From assembly GCA_963766885.1 (NCBI GenBank), contig CAVYBO010000001.1, positions 4,352 to 68,351 on the forward strand: a DNA stretch of 64,000 nt, written 5' to 3'. How positions within the stretch are numbered: position 1 is the stretch's first letter; every line of letters begins with the position of its first letter. Of this stretch, positions 18,539 to 49,904 are shown piece after piece. Source of the stretch: an uncultured bacterium. GTDB taxonomy: Bacteria; Patescibacteriota; Minisyncoccia; Phycocordibacterales; CAIRYW01. Below the pieces are notes generated by a model. The model did not search any database. It had not been told where the DNA came from and worked only from the letters and a program-made list of their open reading frames with translations. The position numbers and the translations under genes are program-made.

Positions 18539-18564
18539 AAATTAAGCGAAGCTGTATTTTGCGA

Positions 18565-18634: not shown

Positions 18635-18746
18635 AATTTTCTACCGGAAACATCTGTTGATGAGATTTTGAGATACAAAAAATTATACTAAATTCCTACT
18701 TTAAGCTAAAATTTAGCTAATAATAACTAAACATTTATATAAATAA

Positions 18747-19358: not shown

Positions 19359-19464
19359 CTAATCAGGAGAAGTATTTCAGCCAATATATAAATTGGTATA
19401 ATGAAAACTGCTTACAATAAGCTCCCTCGCTTTTTTCTGACCTAAAAAATGATAAAATAATATT

Positions 19465-21039
19465 ATGCCTTTAGTATCAATCCCAGAAGCATCTAAATGG
19501 GCAACTGATTATCTTGCCAAAGAAGTGTCGCCAACAAACATTTCTTATCTTGTTCAATATGGCAAGGTTAAAAAGCATGGTGAAAATGGTTCAACTCTTG
19601 TTGATTTGGGTGATCTAAAAAAATATTATGAATCGTATAATGGAAAGCGTGAAATAAGCTGGAAAAAAAATCTTGGTGATGATTTAAACTGGACATTATC
19701 TTTTGATAATCTTCGGGAAAAAGATACAACGAAACATGTTCATAGGCTCCATCCTTACAAAGGAAAATATATTCCTCAACTTGTTGAATATTTTATAGAT
19801 AAACACATTGACGATTTTAAAAAAGAAAAATATTTTAATCCTGGAGACATTATCCTTGATCCATTTTTAGGTTCTGGAACAACAATCATTCAATCACTAG
19901 AAACCGGTCTTCATGCAATTGGTGTTGATGTTTCAGAATTTAATTGCATGATTTCTAGTTGTAAGGCATCGGTTTATGACAATAAATATTTAGAAAATAC
20001 AATCAAGAAAATGCTATTTTCACTTGATACATTCGAGCAGGACAACAAAATTGAAGATTTTGAAAATGAGCTTTTAGCAGAGCTAGCAAAATTTAATGGA
20101 GTACATTTTCCTGGTTATGATTTTAAATACAAAGTTAATCAAGGAAACTTCAATGAAAATAAATTTGCAGTAGAAAAAGAAAAAGAATTTTTACCCGTAT
20201 ATAAAAAATTACTTAAAAAATATTCAATTAAACTGAAACAAGAAAAATCTAATTCTTTTTTAGATATCTGGTTTATGGATAATGTTCGTAAGGAGATAGA
20301 CTATGTATTTGAATCTATTAAGCAAGAAAAAGATGTCAAAACTAGAAAAATCCTTGCTCTTATTTTAAGTCGAACAATTAGATCGTGTCGTGCAACAACT
20401 CATAGCGATTTAGCCACACTAAAAGAACCACAACTTACAACTTATTATTGCTATAAACATAAAAAAATTTGTAAACCTCTTTTTTCAATAAAAACAATGC
20501 TGAATCGTTATGCGTTTGATACTTTAAATCGTATTAAAGAATTTAATAGCTTACGTAAGCCAGTACACTACTCTGTTCTAACTGGAGACTCGAGAACAGT
20601 AAACATCTTTGATAAAATAGAAAAGCAAAATCCAGAATTATCTAAAATTCTTAAGAAGCAAAAAATCGCGGGCATTTTCTGCTCTCCTCCATATGTTGGA
20701 CAGATTGATTATCACGAACAGCACGCTTATGCTTACGATCTTCTAGGATTCAAGCGAAAGGATGAATTAGAAATAGGTCCTCTATATAAAGGACAAGGAT
20801 TAGAAGCAAGACGATCATATGTTCAAGGAATTGCAGATGTATTAAACAACTGTAAGAATTACCTCAAGGATGATTTTGACGTTTTTCTTGTTGCAAATGA
20901 TAAATATAATCTTTATCCAGAAATTGCAGAAAAGTCTGGAATGAAAATTGTAAATAAATTCAAGCGGCCAGTGTTGAATAGAACGGAAAGAGATCGAAAT
21001 CCTTATTCAGAAATAATTTTTCATTTCAAATCAAAATAA
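19465..21039 (+). CDS. DNA methyltransferase (N6-adenine or N4-cytosine family)
   Basis: Motif I ILDPFLGSGTT and motif IV CSPPYVGQIDY separated by a putative TRD. Confidence 0.8.
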   Translation: MPLVSIPEASKWATDYLAKEVSPTNISYLVQYGKVKKHGENGSTLVDLGDLKKYYESYNGKREISWKKNLGDDLNWTLSFDNLREKDTTKHVHRLHPYKGKYIPQLVEYFIDKHIDDFKKEKYFNPGDIILDPFLGSGTTIIQSLETGLHAIGVDVSEFNCMISSCKASVYDNKYLENTIKKMLFSLDTFEQDNKIEDFENELLAELAKFNGVHFPGYDFKYKVNQGNFNENKFAVEKEKEFLPVYKKLLKKYSIKLKQEKSNSFLDIWFMDNVRKEIDYVFESIKQEKDVKTRKILALILSRTIRSCRATTHSDLATLKEPQLTTYYCYKHKKICKPLFSIKTMLNRYAFDTLNRIKEFNSLRKPVHYSVLTGDSRTVNIFDKIEKQNPELSKILKKQKIAGIFCSPPYVGQIDYHEQHAYAYDLLGFKRKDELEIGPLYKGQGLEARRSYVQGIADVLNNCKNYLKDDFDVFLVANDKYNLYPEIAEKSGMKIVNKFKRPVLNRTERDRNPYSEIIFHFKSK

Positions 21040-21042
21040 TTT

Positions 21043-21822
21043 ATGGCTTTATCTAAAGAACAAACAAAAAGTGTAGAAGAAGTTTTGAAGGCAAGTTTGC
21101 GTAATAAGTTTCAAAACTATAAACCTGAACCAGCATCAATGCCTTTTCATACTCGTTTGCTTGGCAAAGACAGACTTGCTTTGTATTCTTTTATCCATTC
21201 ATTAAATACAAATTTTGGTACAAGTATATTTGAGCCAGTTGGCTTAGCGTTAGCACAAAAGAATTTTAAAATGGCAGCTTCACAAGCTACAGCTGGAGAT
21301 CAAATTAGTACAGAGGCACAGGTTGAAATTCAAAAAATTATTGATGGTCTTATTACCGCGACAAATTCTCCAAGCAAAACAGAAGAAATTGAAAGGATAC
21401 GCAAAGTTTGTCAAACGGGTGAAATGATTAAGGTTAAGCCGACAAAAGTTGATTTGATGTTTGAATCAAAGGACGGCGCATATTTTTTATTTGATATCAA
21501 AACAGCAAAACCAAATGCTGGCGGCTTTAAAGAATTTAAGCGCACACTTCTTGAATGGGTTGCTGTCGTTTTGGCAAATAAACCAGATGCGAAAATAAAT
21601 ACTTTTATTGCAATTCCTTATAATCCTTATGAGCCAGAACCATATACTCGTTGGACAATGCGAGGAATGCTTGATCTGGAAAATGAACTTAAAGTCGCAG
21701 ATGAGTTTTGGGATTTTCTTGGTGGTAAAAATACTTATAAAGATTTACTCGACTGTTTTGAAAGAGTTGGTATTGAGTTGAGAGATGAAATTGATACTTA
21801 CTTTAAGCGCTTCAATAAATAA
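21043..21822 (+). CDS. Putative cognate type II restriction endonuclease (by position only)
   Basis: 259-aa ORF 4 nt downstream of the MTase; no motif I can name confidently. Confidence 0.35.
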   Translation: MALSKEQTKSVEEVLKASLRNKFQNYKPEPASMPFHTRLLGKDRLALYSFIHSLNTNFGTSIFEPVGLALAQKNFKMAASQATAGDQISTEAQVEIQKIIDGLITATNSPSKTEEIERIRKVCQTGEMIKVKPTKVDLMFESKDGAYFLFDIKTAKPNAGGFKEFKRTLLEWVAVVLANKPDAKINTFIAIPYNPYEPEPYTRWTMRGMLDLENELKVADEFWDFLGGKNTYKDLLDCFERVGIELRDEIDTYFKRFNK

Positions 21823-31059: not shown

Positions 31060-31133
31060 GGCGACTATAGTTTAGTGGTAAAACTCCGGTTTGTGGAACC
31101 GGTATCGAGAGTCCGATTCTCTCTAGTCGCCCA
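31060..31133 (+). tRNA. tRNA-His (anticodon GTG) with encoded G-1; its 3' end is the anchor and core sequence of the downstream cassette array
   Basis: G-1 plus gcgacta acceptor, anticodon arm ccggt-ttGTGga-accgg, T-arm gagag-tccgatt-ctctc, 3' tagtcgc-c-ca. Confidence 0.85.
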
Positions 31134-31199
31134 TCAATGATTTTCTCCAATAAAGCCTTATACCGCTTAGACTTTTCAGTTCTAACCTGTTAGAGTTTT
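31134..31199 (+). repeat. Head type a' (copy 1 of 3): native-like flank directly after the tRNA-His 3' end
   Basis: tcaatgattttc...cttagacttttcagttctaacctgttagag; recurs at 41620 and 50035 right after a GTCGCCCA core. Confidence 0.6.
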
Positions 31200-31202
31200 G
31201 GT

Positions 31203-31898
31203 ATGGAAAGACCAGAAACAACTTTATTTATGCTGATGTCAGTGGACGGCAAAATTTCTACTGGTGATACAGATGAAATGGATGTAGATAAAGACTATCC
31301 TAAAATCACTGGTCTCAAGGAAGGACTCAAGCAGTATTACGATTTAGAGCAACAGACGGATTTGTTTTCTCTCAATACTGGTCGTGTGTTTGCAAAAATT
31401 GGTGTAAACGAAAAAACTGACGAGCCTGTTAAGTTACCAGTAAGTTTTGTAGTGATAGATAATCAACCTCATCTTACCGAGCAAGGAGTTTCATATTTAG
31501 CGAAGAAAGCAAAAAGCCTTATTATCGTAACAACAAATAAAGCTCATCCAGCATTTTCAGTAAAGGGGGGTTATAGAAATATTGAAATAATTTTTTACGA
31601 AAAAGAAATCAATTTTAGTGATTTGTTCCAAAAATTGAGAAAAGAATATAAAGTTGAAAAACTTACTATTCAATCTGGAGGAACTTTAAATACAACTCTT
31701 GTTAGGGAGGGGTTGGTAGATAGAGTTTTGTTGATAGTTGCTCCTGCATTTGTCGGAGGAAGAAATACATCTACTTTATTGGATGGCGAATCGCTCCATA
31801 CAAAGCGAGAATTGTTTAAAATAAAATCAATGGAACTTATACAAGCGAAACCACTTGAAAATAACTATTTGCTTTTGGAGTATAAGCTTAATAAATAG
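31203..31898 (+). CDS. Dihydrofolate-reductase-like (RibD C-terminal domain family) protein; unit 1 cargo
   Basis: FMLMSVDGKIS...IIVTTNKA...QSGGTLNTTLVREGLVDRVLLIVAP. Confidence 0.6.
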   Translation: MERPETTLFMLMSVDGKISTGDTDEMDVDKDYPKITGLKEGLKQYYDLEQQTDLFSLNTGRVFAKIGVNEKTDEPVKLPVSFVVIDNQPHLTEQGVSYLAKKAKSLIIVTTNKAHPAFSVKGGYRNIEIIFYEKEINFSDLFQKLRKEYKVEKLTIQSGGTLNTTLVREGLVDRVLLIVAPAFVGGRNTSTLLDGESLHTKRELFKIKSMELIQAKPLENNYLLLEYKLNK

Positions 31899-31924
31899 TG
31901 GATTGAGGTGTAGGGTAAAATACA

Positions 31925-31991
31925 GGAATATAAATACTTGCATCATTTAACCTCTCAAAAACAGTTCTAACATCCTCTACTACGTCGCCCA
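31925..31991 (+). repeat. Tail repeat L (unit 1)
   Basis: ggaatataaata...cagttctaacatcctctactacgtcgccca. Confidence 0.7.
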
Positions 31992-32042
31992 GAAAATAAA
32001 ATGTTGTGTTATTATTTTATATTATAATTATCAAATAAAATT

Positions 32043-32339
32043 ATGACTGAAAACAAAACAGAAATTGCTGAAGACAAAATTGAATGGCAAGGACAAGTAG
32101 AAAATGTTAATGCTTCAGAATTAAAAGCTGGGGTCATATACATTGATAGGAATAAAGCTAATTTTTCAGGTCCAGAAACAGAACGAAAACTAAAAATTGT
32201 GGAAATGAATTTACTGAGTGAAGAGAATGGTTATAAGTATTATGAGTTAGTTGCTGAGACCGAAGATGGTAAAACTGTTCATCCAAAAATTGGCTTCAAC
32301 GCAGAGACTTCTTTTGATGTAATTAGAAAAACTGATTAA
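32043..32339 (+). CDS. Hypothetical protein; unit 2 cargo
   Basis: 98-aa ORF. Confidence 0.4.
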   Translation: MTENKTEIAEDKIEWQGQVENVNASELKAGVIYIDRNKANFSGPETERKLKIVEMNLLSEENGYKYYELVAETEDGKTVHPKIGFNAETSFDVIRKTD

Positions 32340-32376
32340 CTGGGAAGTAGTGAATTATAGAGTAGGGTAAAAGCTC

Positions 32377-32504
32377 GGAATATAAATACTCGTATCACCC
32401 AATCTCTCAAAAACAGTTCTAACATCCTCTACTACGTCGCCCAGAATTTTTAGCCTTATATTTTAATAATATTTTCGGATGGGTCTAAAGAGAATCGGAC
32501 TTTT
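32377..32504 (+). repeat. Tail L (unit 2) plus spacer plus head R (unit 3)
   Basis: ...ctactacgtcgccca-gaatttttagccttatattttaataatattttcggat-gggtctaaagagaatcggactttt. Confidence 0.7.
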
Positions 32505-32520
32505 GATATACTTTTGTTAT

Positions 32521-33303
32521 ATGAATGAAAATATAAAAAAAGAAAAAACAACTGAAAAAACTGGTGAAGAGATTTTTTTTGAAATCCATAAAGATATTCC
32601 AAGACAAGGTCCTGGAAACGAAGAGTCAACAAAAAAGGCATTTTCTTTGCTTTCAGGTTTACCTTCAGAACCTGCTATTTTAGATGTGGGGTCTGGACCA
32701 GGATTGCAGACAATAGAATTAGCAAGGTTGAGCGGTGGAAATATAACGGCTTTGGATTACCATCAGGAATTTTTGGATGAGTTAAATTTGAACGCATCCA
32801 AAGCTGGTTTAGGAGAACATATTAAGGAAACCAAAGGTTCAATGTTTGAAATGCCATTTGGTGAAAATAATTTTGATGTTATCTGGTCAGAAGGAGCAAT
32901 CTACATTATTGGTTTTGAGAAAGGATTAAAAGAATGGAAGCCTTTTATTAAAGATGGCGGTTATATGGTCGCATCTCATATTTCTTGGCTTAAAAAAGAT
33001 GTGTCTGAAAAACCGAGAGCTTTTTGGGAAAAAAACTATCCAGCAATAGACACAGTTGAGAACAATCTACAAATTGCACAAAGTGTAGGTTATAACAACA
33101 TCGGACACTTCACCTTGCCAGAAGCGGGATGGTGGGACGGCTACTACGGACCTATGGAAGAAAATCTGAAAAGATTAAGAGTAGAACATCAGGGTAATGA
33201 ATCGGCTTTGGCAAAGATTGCGAGCACCCAAGAAGAAATTGACCTGTATAGAAATTTTGCTGATTGCTACGGATATGTTTTTTATGTTTTGCAAAAGAAC
33301 TAG
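32521..33303 (+). CDS. Class I SAM-dependent methyltransferase; unit 3 cargo. Start placed at MNEN; the ORF-track start at 32479 lies inside the repeat
   Basis: Motif I ILDVGSGPG; post-I acidic residue; methyltransferase type 11/12 pattern. Confidence 0.7.
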   Translation: MNENIKKEKTTEKTGEEIFFEIHKDIPRQGPGNEESTKKAFSLLSGLPSEPAILDVGSGPGLQTIELARLSGGNITALDYHQEFLDELNLNASKAGLGEHIKETKGSMFEMPFGENNFDVIWSEGAIYIIGFEKGLKEWKPFIKDGGYMVASHISWLKKDVSEKPRAFWEKNYPAIDTVENNLQIAQSVGYNNIGHFTLPEAGWWDGYYGPMEENLKRLRVEHQGNESALAKIASTQEEIDLYRNFADCYGYVFYVLQKN

Positions 33304-33333
33304 ACCAAAGACTCAAGGTTGGGGTAAAAGCTC

Positions 33334-33462
33334 GGAATATAGATTGTTGCATCACCCAATCTCTCAAAAACAGTTCTAACATCCTCTACTACGTCGCCCA
33401 GCATTTTTTGAGCCCTATTTTTAAGTGTATTTTCTTATGGGTCTAAAGAGAATCGGACTTTT
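33334..33462 (+). repeat. Tail L (unit 3) plus spacer plus head R (unit 4)
   Basis: Spacer identical to the copy at 34461-34522. Confidence 0.7.
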
Positions 33463-33477
33463 GGTATACTTTAGGCT

Positions 33478-33726
33478 ATGAAAAAATATTTAACTCTAAA
33501 CAATGTTTTTCAAGTCTGTTTGGTTTTCTTTACTGTATTAGGATTTTTGCTTACAGGACTAAAAAACCCTAAATGGGGTTTGATTTTTAATCTTATAGCA
33601 GAAGTCTTTTGGGTATACTCTTCTTATAGAGCTTGGAAAGAAGCCAAACAGATAGGAATATTTATTACTACTATAATCATTACAGCCGTATTGCTTTATG
33701 GAGTATTTAATTACTGGTTTCTTTAA
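33478..33726 (+). CDS. Small two-TM protein; unit 4
   Basis: 82-aa ORF. Confidence 0.3.
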   Translation: MKKYLTLNNVFQVCLVFFTVLGFLLTGLKNPKWGLIFNLIAEVFWVYSSYRAWKEAKQIGIFITTIIITAVLLYGVFNYWFL

Positions 33727-33741
33727 AAACCAATTTATTTC

Positions 33742-34332
33742 CTACAAAGAAAACAATAGCTTGGTAGCCTCATATTGTGGTCTTACTTCTTCTCTAATAT
33801 CATCAAAGAATATTTTTCTGTTGAAATCTTTTTCTATTTTAGATAAGACCCATTTTTTGAAAGCATAATAATTTCCATCATCATTTTTACCCCAGTGTTG
33901 CCAGCAAAAGAAAGTATAGAAATCTGATTGAAAATGAGCAATTGAATCTGCTGTTGCAAGAACCTTGCCTTCAAGTGTTGTTGGTAAAATTTCCTTACAG
34001 CTGTGCGGAAGAATAATTTCATAAATTATGAAATCAGTTTCCTTCTGACTAAATTTTGTCTTTTCAAGAAGTTCACGGGCAATTCCAATACTTCTTTTCT
34101 CGTGATTTTCTTCAGAGCGTAGCATAACTGCGTCGGCTATATCGTGAAGCAGAGCACCAGCAACAACTTGTTCCACATCAGCATTCTTTTCTTTAGCAAT
34201 TCTTTCAGCGTTTTTTACCACGACTAAAAGATGATTCGGATAGCCCCAGAAATTCCAATAATCAGCACTTTCAAGATTAGACTTGTAGAGCTTTTCTACT
34301 TCTTGTTTTAGATTGTTTAATCTTGCTGTCAT
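33742..34332 (-). CDS. HD-domain phosphohydrolase; unit 4, antisense to the array
   Basis: H...HD motif LLHDIADAV; 196 aa. Confidence 0.65.
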   Translation of the reverse strand: MTARLNNLKQEVEKLYKSNLESADYWNFWGYPNHLLVVVKNAERIAKEKNADVEQVVAGALLHDIADAVMLRSEENHEKRSIGIARELLEKTKFSQKETDFIIYEIILPHSCKEILPTTLEGKVLATADSIAHFQSDFYTFFCWQHWGKNDDGNYYAFKKWVLSKIEKDFNRKIFFDDIREEVRPQYEATKLLFSL

Positions 34333-34393
34333 CTATTCATTTTATCGTAAATGTTGCTATCAAGCATTATATTCAGAGATGTGATGAAATGTT

Positions 34394-34522
34394 GGAATAT
34401 AGATTGTCGCATCATTTAACCCTTCAAAAACAGTTCTAACATCCTCTACTACGTCGCCCAGCATTTTTTGAGCCCTATTTTTAAGTGTATTTTCTTATGG
34501 GTCTAAAGAGAATCGGACTTTT
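34394..34522 (+). repeat. Tail L (unit 4) plus spacer plus head R (unit 5)
   Basis: ggaatatagattgtcgcatcatttaacccttcaaaaacagttctaacatcctctactacgtcgccca ... gggtctaaagagaatcggactttt. Confidence 0.7.
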
Positions 34523-34610
34523 AAAATAATCCTTTTGTTTATATCTATGTGTAATTGGATTAAACATAACTCAAACCTAGTTGTGATTTTATTGTTATAA
34601 TTCTAACTAT

Positions 34611-36443
34611 ATGAAAAATTATAATCCTGAATTATTAGAAGGAAATAATGGAGAAAGGACCGAAGAAAAACCTGAAGAAATCACTAATAATGAAACCCTA
34701 GAACCACAAGATAATCACTCGGAATTAGTAGATTTCAGTAAAAGATATTCTCGTGCTGGACGCAAAGAAATTGCTGATGAGATTCGGGAATTACGCTTTC
34801 AATATTTCAAAAAAGAAAAGGGAAATCCAGAACGCCAGGAGACTATTGCTGGCCAAGAAAAAAGCATCGAGGCACTTCAAAAAGAAAAGGATTTGATAGA
34901 AGAAGAAATCAGAGCCTTAGAAGATGAGGTAGAGCAGCAAAAGGCTAGCCTGTGGCATAAGATTTCATCTATGTTCCGCAAGAACGAGATAGAGCAAGAA
35001 TTACAGCTTGACCCCAAGAAAAAGAAACTTGAAGATTTAAAAAAAGATATTGAAGGCAGACTTAAAATAATTGGAGAGACGGAGAGCGTAATTTTAGATA
35101 TATCTTCTCTTGATGAAGCTAAGACTAAATTGGCGGAATTTTACAAAGAACAATCGGATTTAAAATCTTCTTTTGAAAGCGAAGAAAAAGAGCGTGATAT
35201 TGAAACCCTGTCAAAAGATAAAGGATATATTTTTCTACACGGCATTCCTACAAAAAATAGGAATATGAACAACACTGCTGAAAACAATCCAGCAATGAAA
35301 ACTAGCGGAATGAGCACTGAAGATAAACTCTCTTTGCTGATGGGATTAGAGCCAACTGTTTCAGCTTCAGTATTAAAAGAGGGTCAACAAGACGCACAAA
35401 CGTATTATACTTTCGGTGTCATTCTTGGTGGAGGTAAAGTATTAAGTGCATATAAAGAAGATTCAGGCACATTGGCTGAGAGTTTGTACAGTCGAAGGTC
35501 AAAATATGATAGAGAAACTAAACAAACAAGCATTCAACCAAATATTACTGCTCATTTAGATGAAGCTGTAAACGCACCTGTAGAATCAAGAAATTGGGGA
35601 AAATACAATGAAATTGTTGTAGAGCAACCAAAAGTGGCTGGATTATATATTAATTTATCCCAACTTAATAATAATTATGACCGAATTGGGATTGGCGAAC
35701 TGAAAAGATATTCTGAGATAATGAATTTGCCAATATACGCCTTAAAAGACGGAGAAATATATCCATTTGATATTGATAGCAAAATTGGTGTGATGGATGA
35801 CGGCAGAAAATATCAAAAAGAAAATGCATTTGAGGCAGAGGGAAATAAACTTTCGCTTGATAATGTAATTGATAGCCGAAGAGAAATTGGTCAGGAAGAA
35901 AAGCTGAAGTTGGCAACTTCAGTTATAGAGAAAAATCCTTTTCAGATTAGCACCGATGGAGAATATGAACTTTATAACGCTTACTCAAGAGGAACTTACG
36001 GTATATATAATTACAGAAAAGGATACGATAATCTTTTAATGGAACAAGAGCTTCATAAGAAAAGAATAGCAGCTGGTATTGAAGAAAGTGACCCAGGAAC
36101 ACCAGAGGATGTTCTCAAAAAAATGGAAGAGCGGTTGGAAGAATTAAAACAAAGAATTGCAGATGCTACCTCCAATGAAGGTAAAAATTTTACCAATAGA
36201 GACCTTAAAAAAGAACTGATTTCTTTATATGGTTTTGCACTTAACGCACAAGAAAACGGAGATGCAAAAACTTTTGATGCAGCCAAAAATATGATTGAAA
36301 AATACGGCTCGTTTGATGAATGTGCGAATTTAATTAAAAAACGAGTAGACGAAAAAGGAGATTTCAAAACATTAGATACAGATGTGCCGATTGAGATAAG
36401 AAAAAAGATGTCAGAATTAGAAGGGGTTAGTTCTGTTACTTAA
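34611..36443 (+). CDS. Large hypothetical protein with N-terminal coiled coil; unit 5 cargo
   Basis: 610-aa ORF, no recognisable catalytic motif. Confidence 0.5.
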   Translation: MKNYNPELLEGNNGERTEEKPEEITNNETLEPQDNHSELVDFSKRYSRAGRKEIADEIRELRFQYFKKEKGNPERQETIAGQEKSIEALQKEKDLIEEEIRALEDEVEQQKASLWHKISSMFRKNEIEQELQLDPKKKKLEDLKKDIEGRLKIIGETESVILDISSLDEAKTKLAEFYKEQSDLKSSFESEEKERDIETLSKDKGYIFLHGIPTKNRNMNNTAENNPAMKTSGMSTEDKLSLLMGLEPTVSASVLKEGQQDAQTYYTFGVILGGGKVLSAYKEDSGTLAESLYSRRSKYDRETKQTSIQPNITAHLDEAVNAPVESRNWGKYNEIVVEQPKVAGLYINLSQLNNNYDRIGIGELKRYSEIMNLPIYALKDGEIYPFDIDSKIGVMDDGRKYQKENAFEAEGNKLSLDNVIDSRREIGQEEKLKLATSVIEKNPFQISTDGEYELYNAYSRGTYGIYNYRKGYDNLLMEQELHKKRIAAGIEESDPGTPEDVLKKMEERLEELKQRIADATSNEGKNFTNRDLKKELISLYGFALNAQENGDAKTFDAAKNMIEKYGSFDECANLIKKRVDEKGDFKTLDTDVPIEIRKKMSELEGVSSVT

Positions 36444-36477
36444 TTTTATGAGATTTGTCCTTTAGGAAAGAATGTCG

Positions 36478-36606
36478 GAATATAGATTGTCGCATCATTT
36501 AATCTCTCAAAAATAGTTCTAACATCCTCTACTACGTCGCCCACGGTTTTTAAGCCTTATAAAATAGGTGTGATTTGGGTGGGGGTCTAAAGAGAATCGG
36601 ACTTTG
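36478..36606 (+). repeat. Tail L (unit 5) plus variant spacer plus head R (unit 6)
   Basis: ...cgtcgccca-cggtttttaagccttataaaataggtgtgatttgggtgg-gggtctaaagagaatcggacttt. Confidence 0.7.
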
Positions 36607-36619
36607 TTATACTAAATGA

Positions 36620-37174
36620 ATGTATGAAGTAGAATCCAAAGTTGAGATTACAGATAAAGAAAAGGAAAATCTTATTACCTTATTTAAGGAGAAAAATTTT
36701 CCATTTAAAGGTACTACTCCACAGAACGATTTTTATACTGAAGCCAGAGAATCACCACACGGTAGTTATGACGTGAAAAGATACAGGGAAGAAGGCGACA
36801 AATTTATATACACAGAAAAAATATGGGAAGTGGTAGATAATAATCCAGTAAGAAAAGAAACTGAACACGAAGTTTCTAAGAATGAATTTGCATCAGCGAT
36901 TGCTCAATTTCCTAATGCCGTAAAGATAAAGAAGCAAAGAGACTGGTTTGCCGCTAATTACCAAAATACTGACATAAGTCTAACTATAGACACTGTAAAA
37001 TTTGACCACTCTCCAAACACGAGATATTTTATTGAAGCAGAAATAGATGTTCAAGACAAGAAAGATGTCAAGAAATTCAAAGACATCATTATCCAATTCC
37101 TCAAAGAATTATTGAACAAATCGGAAATCATTGAAGCTCCAGGGATGTTTACGATGGCGTTTAAAAAACAATAA
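36620..37174 (+). CDS. CYTH-domain (triphosphate tunnel metalloenzyme; CyaB/ThTPase-like) protein; unit 6
   Basis: N-terminal ExExK signature MYEVESK; size and acidic residues consistent with CYTH. Confidence 0.55.
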   Translation: MYEVESKVEITDKEKENLITLFKEKNFPFKGTTPQNDFYTEARESPHGSYDVKRYREEGDKFIYTEKIWEVVDNNPVRKETEHEVSKNEFASAIAQFPNAVKIKKQRDWFAANYQNTDISLTIDTVKFDHSPNTRYFIEAEIDVQDKKDVKKFKDIIIQFLKELLNKSEIIEAPGMFTMAFKKQ

Positions 37175-37177
37175 ATT

Positions 37178-37633
37178 ATGCGAACCATAGAAAGAAAAAT
37201 TGCTACAGCTGTAATATTTTCAGCAGACGGAAAAATATTTCAAGGCCAGAAAGACCCATCAAAAGGAGGTGTATATAGAGATGGTTATTGGCACATTCCT
37301 GGAGGTGGAATAGAAGAAGGAGAAACGGTAGAACAAGCTTTAATAAGAGAAATAAAAGAAGAAACTGGTATTGATGTATCAAATATTAAAGCTATCTTGA
37401 TTGACGATAAAGGTGAAGGGGAATCAGAAAGAACTTTGGCAAACGGAGAAAAAGTAATTGCCAAAATGAAATTCTACGTATACAAAATTGTCTTGCCAAC
37501 AAACACGGAAGATACAGAAATTCACCTTAACGATGATTTGGTTAAATATAGATGGACTGACCCAAAAGAACTTAAAAACATAAAGCTAACTCCTCCTTCT
37601 GTAGAGTTGTTTACAAAGATGGGGTACCTTTAA
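37178..37633 (+). CDS. NUDIX hydrolase; unit 6, 4 nt after the CYTH gene
   Basis: Nudix box GGGIEEGETVEQALIREIKEETGI. Confidence 0.7.
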   Translation: MRTIERKIATAVIFSADGKIFQGQKDPSKGGVYRDGYWHIPGGGIEEGETVEQALIREIKEETGIDVSNIKAILIDDKGEGESERTLANGEKVIAKMKFYVYKIVLPTNTEDTEIHLNDDLVKYRWTDPKELKNIKLTPPSVELFTKMGYL

Positions 37634-37650
37634 TGGTTGTGCAAAATGTC

Positions 37651-37762
37651 GGAATATAAATTGTCGCATCATTCAAACTCTCAAAAATAGTCCTAACATC
37701 CTCTACTACGTCGCCCACTGTTATATTAAGCTAACGTTAGTGGGCAGTAATATTTCTTTTTC
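37651..37762 (+). repeat. Tail L (unit 6) followed by head type H (hairpin gcccact-N19-agtgggc)
   Basis: Same L+H junction recurs at 47884-48080. Confidence 0.65.
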
Positions 37763-37945
37763 TGACTTTGGTATCTGCTGTTAGCCTGATTCATAACCAG
37801 CAGATATTGACTAAATAAAATATTTCAGTAAGCTATACATACAAATGAAAACAACATTTTCAATTGCAAATAACCATCATACAGCTCTTACTTCAAGAGC
37901 TGGTGTTTGCCGTTGTTAATTTCTCTCTAAGAATTTCACAAAAGT

Positions 37946-37974
37946 AAAAACGAGCTCTTGTAAGAGCTCGTTTT
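37946..37974. terminator. Palindromic hairpin plus T-run upstream of hisG
   Basis: aaaaacgagctcttgtaagagctcgtttt. Confidence 0.5.
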
Positions 37975-38021
37975 GCTATGTAGCAAAATCAGTACATTCA
38001 ACAACAAATGAAAGGATAAGT

Positions 38022-38921
38022 ATGAAACAGATACCAATAAGCGTAGTAGTACCAGACGGTTCAATGCAACCAGTTGTAATGGACCTTCTTGCAAAAGCGG
38101 GTATGCCAGTGAAAGTGAGTAAACGGAGCAAAGAGGGAAAAATCGAAGGTGGTTGGATAGACAAGTTTTTCTTCCAACGGCCACAGGAAATTCCTCTCTA
38201 TCTCAACGCTGGCAATTTCGATTTAGCAATTGTCGGCGAAGATTGGATTGCCAACTGGGGATTCAAGTTTCCGGTTCTGCTTAAACTTCCGATTGGACAA
38301 AGTGGCAACAGAAAACCTGTGAAAATTGTTCTGGCAGTAAGTCAGGACAGCGGTCTCACACTGCTTCAGAATTTTCCACAGGGCTCTGAAGTTGCAACTG
38401 AATATGTCGAGTTGGCGAAGAGGTATTTCGCCAACAGATGTAGGTCAGATATTCGCGTCATGCCATCATATGGCAACACGGAACAAAAAATCCGATTCGG
38501 AGCAACAGCAATCATTGATGTAACTGAGACGGGAGAATCGCTTCGGGAAAACAATCTTGTAATTATTGACGAGATTATGGAATCAAACACCGTTCTGGTG
38601 GCCAATCCTGCGTCTCTCAACAATGAATACATTAAGCCAAACATGGATCTCTTCACCGAACTTGTCAAAGGAGCCTTTGAGGCTTCCGGATATGTTCTGG
38701 TGGTGTCGAATGTGCCCGAAAAAGTGCTCAAGAAGGTAAGTCGCATCCTTGGCGGCTTAAAAGGTCCTTCATGCTCGCCTCTTATCGGAAAAGGAAAAGG
38801 TCGTTTTGCACTGCAGTCCGTTATTCCAAGGGAGAAAGAACAGGAGGTTGTTCGCAACCTACGGCAAATTGGAGTGACAGACATCTTTGTGATCCGAGAC
38901 ATTCCTCTCATCATGAGTTAA
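38022..38921 (+). CDS. hisG: ATP phosphoribosyltransferase, long form (HisG) with C-terminal regulatory domain; unit 7 cargo, GC-rich
   Basis: DLAIVGEDWI and ATAIIDVTETGESLRENNL segments align with HisG signature regions; 299 aa equals long-form length. Confidence 0.6.
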   Translation: MKQIPISVVVPDGSMQPVVMDLLAKAGMPVKVSKRSKEGKIEGGWIDKFFFQRPQEIPLYLNAGNFDLAIVGEDWIANWGFKFPVLLKLPIGQSGNRKPVKIVLAVSQDSGLTLLQNFPQGSEVATEYVELAKRYFANRCRSDIRVMPSYGNTEQKIRFGATAIIDVTETGESLRENNLVIIDEIMESNTVLVANPASLNNEYIKPNMDLFTELVKGAFEASGYVLVVSNVPEKVLKKVSRILGGLKGPSCSPLIGKGKGRFALQSVIPREKEQEVVRNLRQIGVTDIFVIRDIPLIMS

Positions 38922-38949
38922 TTGTTTATTTGTGCTATGACACACAAAC

Positions 38950-39139
38950 CCACCTCGTTAAAACGAAGCGGGTATTTTTTTATTTAAAACTTTTTATCAA
39001 CTTCAACTTCTCTCTAACACCTGCCATATACTCCTGATCAGAAAGTATTGTTATAAAAGGGTAACCGTAGTCGCCCAGCATTTTTAAAGCCTTATTTTTA
39101 AGTATATTTTCGGAATGGGTCTAGAGAGAATCGGACTTT
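38950..39139 (+). repeat. Tail type B (unit 7: terminator hairpin, tatttttttatttaaaac..., ...ggtaaccgtagtcgccca) plus spacer plus head R variant (gggtctagagagaatcggacttt)
   Basis: Second copy of tail B at 49905-50034. Confidence 0.65.
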
Positions 39140-39143
39140 ATTT

Positions 39144-39518
39144 CTAATGGGAATGTCCTTCCTCTCTATTCAACTCATGCACCTGATAATGCACAAGTTC
39201 TTGCAAAGCGACATATCCGAAACGAATAATTACAGCTCCGATACCTACAGTCATCCATGAACATAAAATATTCAATAGAAATGAATAAGGAATATAAAAT
39301 CTGAAAGGTGGCAGCCAATCGTGCAGAGGATTGAAAATAATCACAAAAAATAAACTAATCCAGAAAGTAAAACAAAAACCGCAGTTCAATGCTTTCCTGA
39401 AAAACCATGGAAGGGAATGTGTAAACTGTTTTAGTTTGGGTAAATCGTGTAAAAGATTTCTCCAGAGCACTGCAATTCCTGCTATCGTTAAAATTGAAAA
39501 AATATAATCTGTGAACAT
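39144..39518 (-). CDS. Hypothetical integral membrane protein; unit 8, antisense
   Basis: 124 aa, about 4 TM. Confidence 0.4.
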   Translation of the reverse strand: MFTDYIFSILTIAGIAVLWRNLLHDLPKLKQFTHSLPWFFRKALNCGFCFTFWISLFFVIIFNPLHDWLPPFRFYIPYSFLLNILCSWMTVGIGAVIIRFGYVALQELVHYQVHELNREEGHSH

Positions 39519-39612
39519 TTAATTTTGCTTTTAATAATAAATTTTTAGATTCGTATAAAAATTGCGTTCGGAATTTCTTCCAAGAACGCAGTGTATTCGT
39601 GAGGTGTGATAT

Positions 39613-40263
39613 TTACACCAAACCGATTGCTTCGCCAGCTTCAGGTGAGATGCCCATGTTGAAAGGCATCCGCAAGCCGATGAGCAACATTGACTCCGAG
39701 AGTAGGTGTGACAGGAACGCTTGCGATGCTTCACCAATTGCGGTGTCATGCAAACGAACCATGATTCCACCGATGCCTTCCGCCGTCGCAGGCGCCACAT
39801 CACATCCGCAGTCGCAGTTGTGGTTGAGCACCATGCCAGTGTTGGCGTGGATGACGGATTGGATGTGCATGAACAACCGAAACACTTTGCCGATGGCGTG
39901 CAGGTGGGTATCAACCACAAACCATGGAAACGGCAGCTTGTCCTTCTGGCTGATGATGGTCGCATGCTGCTGCGGGTTCTCACGGGTGCCGAGATAACAG
40001 AGCGAATACCAGAGCGTGGAAGGAATCCGAGCTCCGAATTGTTCCGACAACTCGGCAATTGCCCTGACCATCGCTTGCTTCAGCTTGAAATCGGGGTCAT
40101 CGTGCCTGAAGGCGAAGTGATTCGGGTCAAAGGAGTTTGTGAACCCCAGTCCGACATAGTTGAGCATCACTTCGGCGACTTCGTGCATGTCCACGGTTTC
40201 GCCTTGAATGGTGACCCTGATGCCTTCGGCCGCGAGCATGAAGCCGCGAGCACGCAGAAGCAA
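39613..40263 (-). CDS. Hypothetical protein, GC-rich; unit 8, antisense
   Basis: 216-aa ORF; overlapping + strand ORFs judged antisense artefacts. Confidence 0.4.
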   Translation of the reverse strand: MLLRARGFMLAAEGIRVTIQGETVDMHEVAEVMLNYVGLGFTNSFDPNHFAFRHDDPDFKLKQAMVRAIAELSEQFGARIPSTLWYSLCYLGTRENPQQHATIISQKDKLPFPWFVVDTHLHAIGKVFRLFMHIQSVIHANTGMVLNHNCDCGCDVAPATAEGIGGIMVRLHDTAIGEASQAFLSHLLSESMLLIGLRMPFNMGISPEAGEAIGLV

Positions 40264-40541
40264 ATCGGGGTCAATGGTTTTCTCAAGACTCGGCCATGGT
40301 TCGGGAAGCCGAACGGGTTGACGCAGGTCAACGGGACGTAATCGCTGGACGGTAGTTTGGATGTAGTGGTAGTGACGGTAGTGTAGCAGTCATTGGATTG
40401 GTTGTTTGTGTTTTTGCCTCAAGATTCAAAGACCTTGTTTTGTAAATGCAAACGATTTGCAAATACCTTGCAATACTATACACAAACAAAAATGTTAATG
40501 CAAATGGTTTGCGTTAAGAATGAGTATCGGTTACAAACGCG

Positions 40542-40670
40542 GGAATGTAGATTGTTGCATCATTTAACCTCTCAAAAACAGTTCTAACATCCTCTACTAC
40601 GTCGCCCAGCATTTTTAAAGCCTTATTTTTAAGTATATTTTCGGATAGGTCTAAAGAGAATCGGACTTTT
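40542..40670 (+). repeat. Tail L (unit 8) plus spacer plus head R (unit 9)
   Basis: gggaatgtagattgttgcatcatttaacctctcaaaaacagttctaacatcctctactacgtcgccca...aggtctaaagagaatcggactttt. Confidence 0.7.
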
Positions 40671-40729
40671 CGTGAATTTCAACTAAAAAAGTTTCAACAT
40701 CGTATCAAACACCCAGTTCATTATAGAAA

Positions 40730-41074
40730 TTGCAAAAGCAATCTATATATGTAATATGGTGGTCAGATATGATTTATTATCCAACACCAGACAAGGCCGA
40801 GAGAACCGCTCTCCAGGTTGGGGATGTTATTTCAGTAACACTGAAAGGTGATGTGTCGGTATTAAGAGATAAGAACCCTCTAAAACTCGTCGAAGACGAG
40901 GAAAGTTGTGCTGGCTACTCGTTTCTCAGTACCCTACCTGCTAAAACGAAAATCACACACGATTTTGCTTTGTTTCTAGCAAGGCAGGTGGCTTCAATTG
41001 CCAATCTCGACGTTTCTGATGACATCCAGTTCACTGACGAAGGTTACTTTGCCTTCAATGTGATTCAAAGGTGA
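40730..41074 (+). CDS. Hypothetical protein; unit 9
   Basis: 114-aa ORF. Confidence 0.35.
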   Translation: MQKQSIYVIWWSDMIYYPTPDKAERTALQVGDVISVTLKGDVSVLRDKNPLKLVEDEESCAGYSFLSTLPAKTKITHDFALFLARQVASIANLDVSDDIQFTDEGYFAFNVIQR

Positions 41075-41181
41075 GTTTACGACTCACTATTTTTTATATA
41101 TGGATTTCACAATCTTCGTTCCAACATTGTCCCAAACCTCTCGTTTGACAGAAAGAATTTTTACGTATAGAAATAGGTTAA

Positions 41182-41484
41182 ATGCGCATTGTTTATTTCA
41201 CTTACGTGGTATCCATGGGAAGCCACGGTGGAGGTTATCGTCAGGGAGGAAGCAAACTGAAACACGGTTTGTTGAATTTGAAGAAAGGGGAATTGAGCAC
41301 ATTCTCACACTGCCAACCTCAAATTGAGCAGGAGTTGCAGAGACTGAACATTCAGTTCAGTGATATCGTCTCTCCGGATAGCAAACAGTTCAACGGTTCT
41401 CTGTGTTACCAATACATCACCGATGAAGCTGAAATTCGAGAACTTCAAGAGGACACCTCCATTGAAGTCCGTATTGGCTTCTGA
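41182..41484 (+). CDS. Hypothetical protein; unit 9
   Basis: 100-aa ORF. Confidence 0.3.
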   Translation: MRIVYFTYVVSMGSHGGGYRQGGSKLKHGLLNLKKGELSTFSHCQPQIEQELQRLNIQFSDIVSPDSKQFNGSLCYQYITDEAEIRELQEDTSIEVRIGF

Positions 41485-41552
41485 CTATCGTCACAATTTG
41501 TGGCGAATTTTTTTTATTTAAATCTTACTCAACTTTAATTGTATAAAAGCTC

Positions 41553-41690
41553 GGAATATAGATTGTTGCATCATTTAACCTCTCAAAAATAGTTCTAACA
41601 TCCTCTACTACGTCGCCCATCAGTGGATTTTTCTAAAATATCCTTACTGGGCTTAGACTTTTCAGTTCTAACCAACAGGTTGTTTTTAAT
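41553..41690 (+). repeat. Tail L (unit 9) followed by head type a' (copy 2 of 3)
   Basis: ...cgtcgccca-tcagtggatttttctaaaatatccttactgggcttagacttttcagttctaacc. Confidence 0.65.
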
Positions 41691-41767
41691 TATGGGGGAA
41701 ATGTCAGATACTATTTACTTTAAAATAAGTTATACTTTTTATTATTACGAGCTTAAAAAATAATCGT

Positions 41768-42355
41768 ATGAACAATTTTGAAGGTGCTTCCACACCACCT
41801 GAAGATGAAGAAATTACCGAGAGTGAAAAAATAGAAGCAACTGATGGTTCTGAAAAACCTTTAACGTATAAAGAGAAAACAGAAAGGTTTGAAAAATTGA
41901 TGGAGGAATTAAGGGCAAGTGTTAATGGTTATGAAGAAAAATTTGAGGGTGTGTTAAATTCTATACCTTCGCCCGAAGAGTTGAGCGAACGATATACATC
42001 CCAAGTAAACAGCCCAACTGATGCACTTTCGGGAGCCAAGCTAACTGCCCAGCTTATGTTGCTAAAAGTTGATATGTTGTATCAATACAAAGAATTTGCA
42101 CGCCGTAAGAGTAATCTAATTGATAACAGCAGTAGGAGTAAGCAGGACGCTTTTACTTTTTTCAATGTTCTACCATCCGAAGGTTCAATATCAAAAATTT
42201 TAGAAGGGATGCCACACTCTATTAAAAATGAGGGTATACTGGGCAACAATCTCAATGCCTTGATAGCAGATGAAGCATCAATTTTTTCTAAATTAAAAGA
42301 ATTGAAAGATTTAGACATCTCACCTCGCATTGCTGATATGGCTTATGAATCATAG
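41768..42355 (+). CDS. Hypothetical acidic/coiled-coil protein; unit 10
   Basis: 195-aa ORF. Confidence 0.4.
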   Translation: MNNFEGASTPPEDEEITESEKIEATDGSEKPLTYKEKTERFEKLMEELRASVNGYEEKFEGVLNSIPSPEELSERYTSQVNSPTDALSGAKLTAQLMLLKVDMLYQYKEFARRKSNLIDNSSRSKQDAFTFFNVLPSEGSISKILEGMPHSIKNEGILGNNLNALIADEASIFSKLKELKDLDISPRIADMAYES

Positions 42356-42381
42356 TTAAAAATAAATCAGAATTTACTACA

Positions 42382-43050
42382 ATGAGTATGGAAATGCCGA
42401 CAACAGAAGAATCAAGCGAAGAAGAGGGCGTAATAGACTCTAATCCAGAAAATCAACCAGAAGAAACACCCGAAGTAATTGAACCAGAAGATGAAGCCAA
42501 GAAATCTGAAGTGGTAGAATCAAATCTTGATTCTAAAAAAGAAAGAGTAAGAGAAGAAGAGTTGAAGGAGGGTATCATCACTGTTAAAACTAACTTATCA
42601 AGAATTTCTGAATTATTAGGAAACCTTGCTGGTGAATTTCGTCGCAGAGATAGTGATAGATACACCAAAATAGCAAACTCAACAGACTTTGCTAGGTGCG
42701 GAGAGCAAATAACAGAATTTCTCCATACTCTTTCTGCTGACCAAGTTGATGAATCTGTGGGCAAACTAAAAAACCTTGGCACTATTGCCGATTCATTTAG
42801 TAAAACAGTTTTAAGTATGAATACAGATAATTACCGAGGCACTATAAAGGAGGATGCCGCAAGTCTTTTTAGACTTAAAAGTATTTTTGAGCAAATGCCA
42901 GAATTTATTGGTCGCCTTAAAGATTTAAGTTTCAAGTCAAATCAAAAAGAATTTACTTCTCTGTTTGATTCCTTTAGGAAAATAGGTGAAGGAACTGAAC
43001 GGGCAAAAAATTTCCTAACTAGACTTGGAAATGCAGTTAAAAGAAGATGA
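42382..43050 (+). CDS. Hypothetical acidic protein; unit 10
   Basis: 222-aa ORF. Confidence 0.4.
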   Translation: MSMEMPTTEESSEEEGVIDSNPENQPEETPEVIEPEDEAKKSEVVESNLDSKKERVREEELKEGIITVKTNLSRISELLGNLAGEFRRRDSDRYTKIANSTDFARCGEQITEFLHTLSADQVDESVGKLKNLGTIADSFSKTVLSMNTDNYRGTIKEDAASLFRLKSIFEQMPEFIGRLKDLSFKSNQKEFTSLFDSFRKIGEGTERAKNFLTRLGNAVKRR

Positions 43051-43103
43051 GTCATATTTGGGATTGCATCATATAGTGAGTTGAGAGGTGGGGTAAAACG
43101 CAG

Positions 43104-43183
43104 GAATATAGATTGTCGCATCATTCCTCCTCTCAAAAACAGTTCTAACATCCTCTACTACGTCGCCCCCAAGAGAGAATTAG
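43104..43183 (+). repeat. Tail L (unit 10, core variant GTCGCCCC) plus degenerate head R remnant (aagagagaattag)
   Basis: caggaatatagattgtcgcatcattcctcctctcaaaaacagttctaacatcctctactacgtcgccccc. Confidence 0.6.
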
Positions 43184-43251
43184 TTGAGATAAACACTCCT
43201 TCTAGGAAACTATTTCGCTTTTTTATTTTTACCTTATAATGTAATGTAAAT

Positions 43252-43698
43252 ATGAATAAGTTTTCAATCACGTCTATAATTTTTTCAGTGGTATTTTTCC
43301 TGACTATGGCTTTTCTTACAACTTACGCGATTGCTGCGTCTATCGTGAGTTCCCATATCCATGTGATCAATAGAAATACTCTTAGTAAACCTTTTTCTGG
43401 TATAGTCGAAGGAACAGTCATTGCTACATCTACAACAAGTATAACAATTGATAAAAATATATATCTTGGTAGAACTGCTTCTTCTACAGAAATGACTTTT
43501 GTTTTGATGCCAAATGTCAGGGTACACGAGTATCACGGTGAAAGTGCATCCACAGGTATATCTATAGGATCATCTGTTTCTCTTGTTTTGGAACATCTGG
43601 GTAAAGATGAGGGGAAAGTTTTTGAGATACGGGTTTTGTGGAACGGAGAACATAGAAATGTTTTTACTCATACTGGCAAGAAAGCGAATACTATATGA
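43252..43698 (+). CDS. Hypothetical secreted/membrane-anchored protein; unit 11
   Basis: 148 aa with N-terminal TM; stop overlaps the start of the next gene. Confidence 0.4.
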   Translation: MNKFSITSIIFSVVFFLTMAFLTTYAIAASIVSSHIHVINRNTLSKPFSGIVEGTVIATSTTSITIDKNIYLGRTASSTEMTFVLMPNVRVHEYHGESASTGISIGSSVSLVLEHLGKDEGKVFEIRVLWNGEHRNVFTHTGKKANTI

Positions 43699-49885: not shown

Positions 49886-49904
49886 AACAATTCTTTATTT
49901 CGAA

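Follow-up and report, generated by a model that had tools for sequence, protein, structure and literature searches.

A tandem array of small gene cassettes with att-like junctions, anchored at the 3' end of tRNA-His in an apparent candidate phyla radiation chromosome

An integron comprises an IntI integrase, an attI site and an array of attC sites, where each attC is an imperfect palindrome that folds as single-stranded DNA (R''-L''/L'-R', with extrahelical bases); its boundary carries the core GTTRRRY, with the inverse core RYYYAAC at the other end of the attC, and intI and attI lie by the first cassette. Cis-mobilizable elements (CIMEs) are bounded by att sites, have neither integrase nor transfer functions, stand one after another at a single att site and need a recombinase from another element. 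Bacteria of the candidate phyla radiation (CPR) have tiny genomes with few recognised mobile elements, and gene exchange among them is poorly understood. Here we describe a tandem array of 13 small gene cassettes that starts at the 3' end of a tRNA-His gene in DNA from an uncultured bacterium (NCBI GenBank contig CAVYBO010000001.1, positions 4,352 to 68,351, a stretch of 64,000 nucleotides which is called the window throughout), and compare it with these and other systems in which elements accumulate at a fixed site.

CIMEs, and the site-specific accretion of ICEs (integrative and conjugative elements) and of IMEs (elements both integrative and mobilizable), have been described in streptococci (reviewed in PMC5704250; cited in PMC3146451). 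The tandem islands at the transfer-messenger RNA (tmRNA) gene ssrA of Dehalococcoides are many kilobases long and have 20-bp repeats with a crossover in the T-loop; 16 of them carry a serine recombinase (DsiB) module, and 15 of the 31 are without an integration module and were proposed to be cis-mobilizable (McMurdie et al. 2011, PMC3146451). The tycheposons of Prochlorococcus integrate at tRNAs so that newcomers push older elements outward, have attachment motifs of ~40 nt (partial tRNAs) and carry integrase and replication genes, with remnants and extra partial tRNAs scattered through their islands in these streamlined genomes (Hackl et al., bioRxiv 10.1101/2020.12.28.424599). The integrase of phage mv4 uses the 3' end of a tRNA-Ser with an overlap of 7-8 bp, core-binding sites that are degenerate and have hardly any symmetry, and arm sites placed at either end of a 215-bp attP (bioRxiv 10.1101/2023.11.06.565760), and an "asymmetric 3'-end" sublocation within tRNA genes (tDNA) is named in bioRxiv 10.1101/2020.11.02.365908, which cites Williams 2002.

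The window has an overall GC content of 38.6% and codes for PolA, L19, PilM, DUF5666/5667 proteins and sortases; the nearest protein relatives are annotated as Parcubacteria or Paceibacterota, and the window looks like a chromosome segment of a CPR bacterium. Its tRNA-His gene ends in the octamer GTCGCCCA, made up of the acceptor 3' strand (68-72), discriminator C73 and 2 nt beyond (thus the last 6 nt of tRNA-His and 2 nt of its trailer). This octamer occurs 13 times in the 64 kb against 0.69 copies expected (the maximum in 100 shuffles was 3), on the + strand without exception and confined to 31126-50719, and a relaxed search gave one more core, the variant GTCGCCCC at 43162, as a 14th junction. 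An intact tRNA-His therefore stands at one end and is followed by 13 further cores on the same strand, 12 of them intact. The observation is real and non-random, in agreement with the preliminary description of this DNA, which had the repeated tails end in the tRNA-His 3' end in the same orientation.

The 14 cores delimit 13 head-to-tail cassettes (C1 to C13) directly after tRNA-His (31134-50719), of 452-4866 bp, each laid out as a head, one to three genes and a tail. Two tail families were found, type A (n=11), ending in CAGTTCTAACATCCTCTACTAC, and type B (n=2), ending in GGGTAACCGTA; the type-B ending previously reported (...ccgtaGTCGCCCA) is present at 39070 and 50027. Heads belong to families H1 (n=6), H2 (n=3, including the sequence directly after the tRNA) and H3 (n=2), and a further two are unique. 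All genes lie on the tRNA strand in 11 of the 13 cassettes, mobility genes are found in none of the 13, and cassette GC content spans 31.6-48.2%, compared with 38.3% for either flank. After the last core the chromosomal flank resumes, with the stop of a convergent 118-amino-acid (aa) gene at 50731. The features, including open reading frames (ORFs), are as follows.

31061-31133, + strand: tRNA-His (GUG) with G-1 encoded (ARAGORN; Rfam tRNA, 64.7 bits).
31126-31133, + strand: tRNA-His end GTCGCCCA, the attB-like anchor of the array (from the sequence).
31925-31991, + strand: type-A tail of C1 plus core (31984-31991), the stretch originally flagged (from sequence and alignment).
31134-31991, + strand: C1 (858 bp, 34.4% GC); H2 head 31134-31205 (the sequence right after the tRNA), RibD_C/DHFR-family gene 31203-31898, tail A, core.
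31992-32443, + strand: C2 (452 bp, 31.6% GC); unique head, 98-aa ORF 32043-32339 without family match, tail A, core.
32444-33400, + strand: C3; H1 head with inverted tRNA-His T-arm copy 32482-32507, class I methyltransferase 32524-33303, tail A, core.
33401-34460, + strand: C4; H1 head, 82-aa ORF 33478-33726 (+), HD-domain gene 33742-34332 (-), tail A, core.
34461-36543, + strand: C5; H1 head, promoter-like GATTTTATTGTTATAAT 34585-34610, 610-aa coiled-coil protein 34611-36443, tail A, core.
36544-37717, + strand: C6; H1 variant head (inverted copy TGGGGGTCTAAAGAGAATCGGACT, 36580-36603), CYTH 36620-37174, NUDIX 37178-37633, tail A, core.
37718-39077, + strand: C7 (41.2% GC); H3 head, HisG 38022-38921, terminator-like hairpin, tail B, core.
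39078-40608, + strand: C8 (44.7% GC); H1 head, minus-strand ORFs of 124 aa (39144-39518) and 216 aa (39613-40263) without family match, tail A, core.
40609-41619, + strand: C9; H1 head, small ORFs 40730-41074 and 41182-41484 without match, tail A, core.
41620-43169, + strand: C10; H2 head, acidic proteins of 195 aa and 222 aa, tail A, variant core GTCGCCCC 43162-43169.
43170-48035, + strand: C11; unique head beginning CAAGAGAGAAT (inverted ATTCTCTCT), 148-aa ORF, 1368-aa LamG/FN3/GLUG surface protein 43695-47801, interrupted tail A, core.
48036-50034, + strand: C12 (48.2% GC); H3 head, pyridoxal phosphate (PLP)-dependent enzyme (PALP) 48168-49514, tail B, core.
50035-50719, + strand: C13; H2 head, AAA_18 nucleotide-kinase-like gene 50104-50622, tail A, last core 50712-50719.

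In an alignment of the 13 junctions the octamer sits at every unit boundary and is the sole invariant block, and the type of tail and the type of head switch exactly at its edges, which bears out its proposed place as an att core. The combinations present are tRNA|H2, A|H1, A|H2, A|H3, A|unique, B|H1 and B|H2, and the tRNA, both tail families and all the head families have exactly 8 bp in common (the overlap of tyrosine-recombinase sites of the lambda/mv4 type being 6-8 bp). H3 heads and B tails occur at opposite ends of the same cassettes (C7 and C12), which fits with tail, core and head forming one site on a circle. Among ten A tails, identity is 96-100% in the 30 nt adjoining the core and 84-91% from -60 to -30, reaching background beyond -80, and pairs of tails differ at 6-19 of 72 positions; this divergence, combined with a gradient of conservation centred on the core, suggests constraint and not recent duplication. 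Judged from the sequences, such a gradient indicates a sequence-specific role with the core as its centre, with conserved arms of ~70 nt on the left (tails) and ~65 nt on the right (heads, 50-70 nt).

The tails also retain some likeness to the tRNA gene outside the core. Two long-form A tails, those at 32436 and 33393, align collinearly with the whole of tRNA-His (scores of 13.5, against 3.8 +/- 1.8 in shuffles with 0/500 as high, and 10.0, with 6/500), and the C2 tail has at 32363, in the expected position, a D-arm-like 16-mer (TAGGGTAAAAGCTCGG) that is the sole match within 3 edits in the window besides the tRNA itself; the similarity of the other eight A tails of the ten to tRNA-His was not significant. 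H2 heads equal the present trailer of tRNA-His. From this we infer, the support being moderate, that every junction goes back to a complete locus of tRNA-His gene plus trailer which has decayed except where it is needed.

It had further been proposed that each junction carries, downstream of the core, an inverted partial copy of the tRNA-His 3' half. Such a copy, of the T-loop, 3' T-stem and acceptor strand, does lie 37-40 nt past the core in the six H1 heads (those after the cores at 32436, 33393, 34453, 36536, 39070 and 40601), and its likeness to tRNA-His is real and specific: local alignment of the H1 reverse complement to tRNA-His scored 29-34, better than any shuffled control (12 +/- 1.9, maximum 24 in 1000), with six other tRNAs scoring 10-18 and the forward orientation 11-15. 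The proposal was wrong as to "each", as the three H2, two H3 and two unique heads are without the copy, and with 7 of 13 cassettes lacking it the element is not required for a junction. Where present, the copy matches the T-arm at 16/16 positions in the head with the copy at 39122 and at 15/16 in four others, and the one at 36580-36603 matches at 21/24; it is held at 15-16/16 while neighbouring tail positions diverge, and might, as proposed in the preliminary description, be a recombinase binding site; the core portion of the inverted copies is always mutated (TGGGTCTA, not TGGGCGACTA). Use of the H1 copy as a primer-binding site in tRNA-primed reverse transcription was considered and rejected, as the copy is present in 6 of 13 heads only, its inverted core is mutated and no reverse transcriptase was found in the window.

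All six H1 cassettes are internal to the array, and the unit adjoining tRNA-His has an H2 head. An in-silico transcript of tRNA-His joined to H1 (31061-31133 plus 39078-39150 or 33401-33475) folds up as a hairpin of -54 kcal/mol in which the T-arm and acceptor strand are taken up and the cloverleaf is lost, compared with -35 kcal/mol and an intact cloverleaf for the native tRNA|H2 junction. H1 cassettes may thus be tolerated only at internal positions. A similar inverted T-arm is found ~55-60 nt past the end of a tRNA or tmRNA at two unrelated places, the tRNA-Arg(GCG) of the window and a tmRNA locus in another genome (L026, described below). At the former (window 10503-10645) a 12/12 inverted copy of the gene's own T-arm (GGTAGGAATCGAA, 10628-10641) lies ~55 nt past the gene, followed by CCTTTTG, in a layout as in H1 heads (alignment 24 against a null of 11.6 +/- 2.0, 0/300); no direct repeat of the tRNA-Arg(GCG) end was found downstream.

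A heptamer, YTCTAAC, had been described as recurring upstream of every core. It does recur, at -19 in tail A, with further copies at +47 in H2 heads, at +43 in one H3 head and at -58 in one B tail, hence in four unrelated arm families in all, and is on sequence grounds a candidate protein-binding motif. It is not upstream of every core, being mutated at 37710 (TCCTAAC) and 50027 (CTCTCAC) and absent before the tRNA core.

Relatives of this locus were reached through the flanking MPG gene (63-68% identity) and have the synteny L19, tRNA-Leu, tRNA-His ... MPG, (PAP2), SIMPL, with no array and no repeats of the tRNA-His end, so that the occurrence of arrays at tRNA-His did not extend to these related genomes. 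The array is thus an insertion against conserved synteny and, by the GC range given above, of foreign composition. One of the relatives (L016, Logan SRR22388038, 10519-12476; MPG 66% identical) has tRNA-His followed by an HTH_17 excisionase-like gene, Fic, NUDIX and two small ORFs and then MPG; its contig has no repeat of the tRNA-His end and no integrase.

We consider that the junctions are probably hybrid att sites, made by repeated conservative site-specific recombination at an 8-bp overlap by a recombinase that is encoded elsewhere. One partner would be a circular cassette with the site tail-core-head (an attP of ~145 bp) and the other would be the tRNA-His 3' end, or the core of an existing array junction; the 8-bp core would be the strand-exchange (overlap) region, exchange there yielding hybrid junctions, and the ~70-nt tails and 50-70-nt heads would be the P and P' arms, bound as double-stranded DNA. 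Since the crossover would lie within tRNA positions 68-73 and the 2 nt that follow, the tRNA would never be damaged. The enzyme would most likely be a heterobivalent tyrosine integrase, of the type using asymmetric tRNA 3' ends, supplied in trans. What the sequences show is the anatomy of the sites, the exact point of the switch, the constraint next to the core, the mixed composition of the cassettes, the lack of an array in the relatives and the want of folding; circular intermediates, this type of recombinase and present activity are what we infer from the arrangement.

Several points weigh against hybrid att sites. No inverted core-binding sites flank the core, the best dyad matching at 8-10 of 14 positions as in shuffles (11 junction types), and this lack of symmetry is unlike simple Cre/Xer-type or large-serine-recombinase sites and consistent with the "asymmetric 3' end" class of tRNA sites. 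No integrase, tyrosine or serine recombinase, resolvase, transposase or reverse transcriptase was found among 54 ORFs of the 64-kb window searched against Pfam (every one 250 aa or longer, those in the array that were taken for genes and, beyond the array, ten more of 187-259 aa), and the enzyme is consequently hypothetical and would act in trans. All 13 units are without a site-specific integrase of either the tyrosine or the serine type, and a unit size of 452 bp is atypical for tRNA-integrated islands. A circular form, an empty site or an alternative array order has not been observed so far, and gene conversion could likewise keep the repeats of one array similar. Nor was a second genome with these tails or heads found by exact 18-22-mers (tail A in GTDB species genomes, JGI metagenomes and IMG/VR; H1, H2 and H3 in IMG/VR only), where the exact-word matches were high-GC or unrelated chance ones. 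Searches of tails and heads by blastn against phages and plasmids gave nothing, and nhmmer profiles run on 33 fetched loci and on the window outside the array recovered only the organism's own unitig (L015) and exact-word chance loci; the window proteins that were looked up are all singletons at 90% identity. A recombinase hidden among the unannotated cassette proteins was also rejected as a candidate, since those without a Pfam match were negative against PHROGs and/or NCBIfam as well, and two of them had no meaningful sequence match in the PDB.

The preliminary description suggested that the junctions might fold as single strands in the manner of attC, and an integron-type explanation, with such sites serving an IntI-like enzyme, would suit the small, mostly co-oriented and recombinase-less cassettes with their conserved boundary elements. 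One fold does stand out (z -2.55), a small H3 hairpin, GCCCACTG..TAGTGGGC, to which part of the core belongs. As a whole, however, the junctions folded as single-stranded DNA no better than dinucleotide shuffles on either strand (z -1.4 to +2.4), 13 of 16 whole-junction folds were less stable than the shuffles (positive z), and RNAalifold on ten A tails gave -0.76 kcal/mol with zero compensatory pairs; moreover the core is not GTTRRRY, the inverse core is absent and no intI was found beside the array. The folded-substrate idea is thus largely refuted and an integron-type origin is very improbable, and with no folding above shuffles the junction sites most likely act as duplex DNA. This shortage of structure relative to shuffles holds for most junctions (e.g. 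32356-32505 and 34373-34522, z up to +2.4) and may reflect selection against secondary structure or simply A/T-tract composition. A role at the RNA level has been considered as well, in which tails mimic a tRNA 3' end for the cutting of transcripts ("tRNA punctuation") or heads act as terminators: the core does reproduce the acceptor 3' strand and discriminator, the hypothetical tRNA-His|H1 hairpin described above is followed by U's, and B tails start with terminator-like hairpins. Yet the tails are without the 5' acceptor partner, have no consensus structure and gave no tRNA-like match by Rfam at E<=10 (an empty result that ruled out tails as tRNA-like RNAs), internal H1 junctions are unfolded, and it would stay unexplained why heads and tails assort independently at the core, and so we regard such a role as just as improbable as the integron-type one.

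Apart from hybrid att sites made in trans, the array could be a fossil, formed when once-autonomous tRNA-His islands accreted in tandem and afterwards shed, through deletions, their integrases and the bulk of what they held, so that nothing moves now. The failure to find a recombinase in the 13 units or among the scanned window ORFs, the one decayed core (GTCGCCCC at 43162), the insertion of ~85 nt in one tail and the want of sister copies anywhere searched would all be in keeping with this, and comparable remnants have been described for tycheposons and ssrA islands. But independent deletion would not spare complete conserved tails and heads in all 13 units while removing every mobility gene, conservation reaches 96-100% over the 30 nt by the core and 12 of 13 cores are intact, whilst distal tail positions diverge by 10-25%, and units of 452-1000 bp with one intact gene resemble designed cargo and not debris; we think the fossil explanation unlikely. 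Still less likely, in our judgement, is an array without a dedicated recombinase, built of decayed copies of the whole tRNA-His locus (a pseudo-tRNA tail and a trailer-like head) that grew and were shuffled by homologous recombination or unequal crossing-over between the ~150-bp repeats. This would account for the two long-form A tails collinear with full tRNA-His and the D-arm-like 16-mer at 32363, for H2 as the tRNA's own trailer and the resemblance of H1 to the native tRNA-Arg trailer layout, and for neighbouring junctions that are sometimes most alike (33393/34453, 99-nt exact). However, tail A and the real tRNA have only 8-10 bp in common, which is too short for homologous recombination, and still tRNA|H2, A|H3 and B|H1 change over precisely at the core; features derived in common mark the tails as copies of one diverged ancestor and not as independent decay of tRNAs, and eight of the ten tails are without significant tRNA similarity. 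Finally, the contig is metagenome-assembled and a short-read unitig ends at the repeats, as if an assembler had threaded unrelated fragments through a common repeat. This is extremely improbable: the longest exact stretch common to two junctions is 99 nt (33393/34453) and most are <=62 nt, such that ordinary reads bridge them, the junctions are individually different, both flanks match the synteny of relatives, and an independent Logan unitig spanning 34493-36533 (C5), whose ends fall within the H1 head and tail A, shows no difference across its 2041 nt. The identity of this unitig and the short exact sharing indicate that the array is not an assembly artefact. A transposon with terminal inverted repeats or a target-site duplication was also rejected, as on inspection of the junction alignment head starts and tail ends are not inverted repeats.

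Two cassette genes were traced into other genomes, where relatives of both are found beside other tRNAs. The 610-aa protein of C5 belongs to a small Paceibacterota family with 13 homologs, and its closest relative (73% aa identity; L033, ENA ERZ28573551 scaffold_18245, 4567-6690) lies directly after tRNA-Gln(UUG) as the one gene of an insert flanked by repeats, and behind it comes a direct repeat, now diverged, that takes in the tRNA-Gln T-arm, acceptor, CCA and trailer (47-nt local alignment scoring 32 against 16.5 +/- 2.2, 0/500; the similarity spans about 85 nt at ~75% identity). The promoter-like sequence of this gene (GATTTTATTGYTATAAT) is conserved at 21/26 positions with window 34585-34610, and the 10.9-kb contig carries no integrase. 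The second closest, at 69% identity, sits behind secY-adk-map as an ordinary gene. The DHFR-family gene of C1 has 70-77% identical homologs across Parcubacteria, and in all five genomes inspected the RibD_C/DHFR gene lies 0.07-5.8 kb downstream of a tRNA or tmRNA (His, Ser-UGA, tmRNA, Glu and Ser-GCU; loci window 31203-31898, L020 9811-10696, L023, L026 and L027), the wider context being otherwise not conserved; at the Ser-GCU locus a large serine recombinase lies beside the tRNAs. A likeness of tail A to the sequence after the RibD_C gene of L020 was tried and was not significant. These loci, taken as sequences, support the view that single genes may move into tRNA 3' ends in this group, and the occurrence of the same genes beside different tRNAs in different genomes hints that the route may be common in it; they do not show movement of the present array.

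In L026 (JGI Ga0376277_0002315, reverse, 6677-6880) the tmRNA is followed by a mini-insert of ~160 nt bounded by a 21-nt direct repeat (TCGATTCCGCCCATCTCCAC), which holds a terminator hairpin and, at +60, an inverted T-arm copy (GGAATCGAAC); it looks like the fused P' and P arms of a lost element. In the window itself, the region 18467-21822 has tRNA-Arg(UCU) with a restriction-modification pair immediately downstream of it, an N6_N4 DNA methylase (19465-21039) and a TdeIII-type endonuclease (21043-21822); the pair may be another tRNA-associated islet, with no repeat of the tRNA end seen.

As to the cargo, ten ORFs in six cassettes had no match in any library searched. Both type-B cassettes carry cargo of an amino-acid-metabolism type, HisG (ATP phosphoribosyltransferase; it lies in an array that adjoins tRNA-His) in C7 and the 448-aa PLP-dependent enzyme in C12, and their GC contents (41% and 48%) exceed the 38.3% of the flanks, as do those of C8 and C11. 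HisG and a PLP-dependent enzyme are unusual cargo for CPR bacteria and may come from a different donor lineage. In C11, tail A is broken by an insertion of ~85 nt (47936-48020) between AACATCCT and TCTACTAC, without obvious terminal repeats, and the gene for the 1368-aa protein has a periodic repeat of ~96-102 nt at 45740-46450 (GLUG motifs).

If the junctions are hybrid att sites as we propose, cassette-style capture can rest on ordinary duplex att sites and not on folded attC. A wider idea, which we offer tentatively and hold to be doubtful, is that some Paceibacterota run a tRNA-anchored, integron-like capture of single genes with their own promoters, each with a pseudo-tRNA tail, a trailer-like head and an 8-bp core, through duplex sites and a recombinase in trans, the cargo including, besides accessory genes, some that sister lineages have as ordinary chromosomal genes (the DHFR-family gene and that of the 610-aa protein, for example). 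It would then represent an independent and mechanistically distinct invention of the cassette-array principle in ultra-small genomes. The array would provide a testable substrate, of ~145 bp plus a tRNA end, for finding the recombinase, and a search rule for metagenome-assembled genomes, namely that a tRNA 3' end recurs at least three times on the same strand at intervals of 0.4-5 kb.

Compared with the systems set out at the beginning, the array resembles the Dehalococcoides ssrA islands in its complete tRNA or tmRNA, its tandem units, its same-strand direct repeats of the 3' end and the extra conserved sequence by the repeat, but differs in that the core is of 8 bp and at the extreme 3' end, the units are of 0.45-4.9 kb with a recombinase in 0 of 13, and the arms (~70 and ~65 nt) are far longer. 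Like tycheposon arrays it consists of elements at a tRNA that are parted only by partial tRNA copies, although here they are cassettes of a single gene or a few genes, without integrase or replication genes. With CIMEs it shares att-like boundaries and the absence of an integrase from the units; CIMEs, however, are usually one or two decayed ICE derivatives, whereas here there are 13 mini-cassettes and no parent element was found in the searches above. The proposed crossover at the extreme 3' end of a tRNA, the 8-bp core and the weak symmetry around it are as in mv4. That phage, however, is complete and brings its own int, whereas this locus has the sites and nothing more. The likeness to an integron lies in a fixed chromosomal platform, a long run of small, mostly co-oriented, recombinase-less cassettes of mixed origin and a short common core. 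The platform, in contrast, is a tRNA 3' end, the site is split into tail and head around the core, at least some cassettes have their own promoter-like element, and three of the four defining integron features are absent (attC folding; the core sequence, with GTCGCCCA in place of GTTRRRY and no TGGGCGAC-type inverse core in the tails; an adjacent intI), the fourth, the cassette array, being present. We class the array with the tRNA-anchored tandem accretions of att-bounded elements, with an integron-like organisation.

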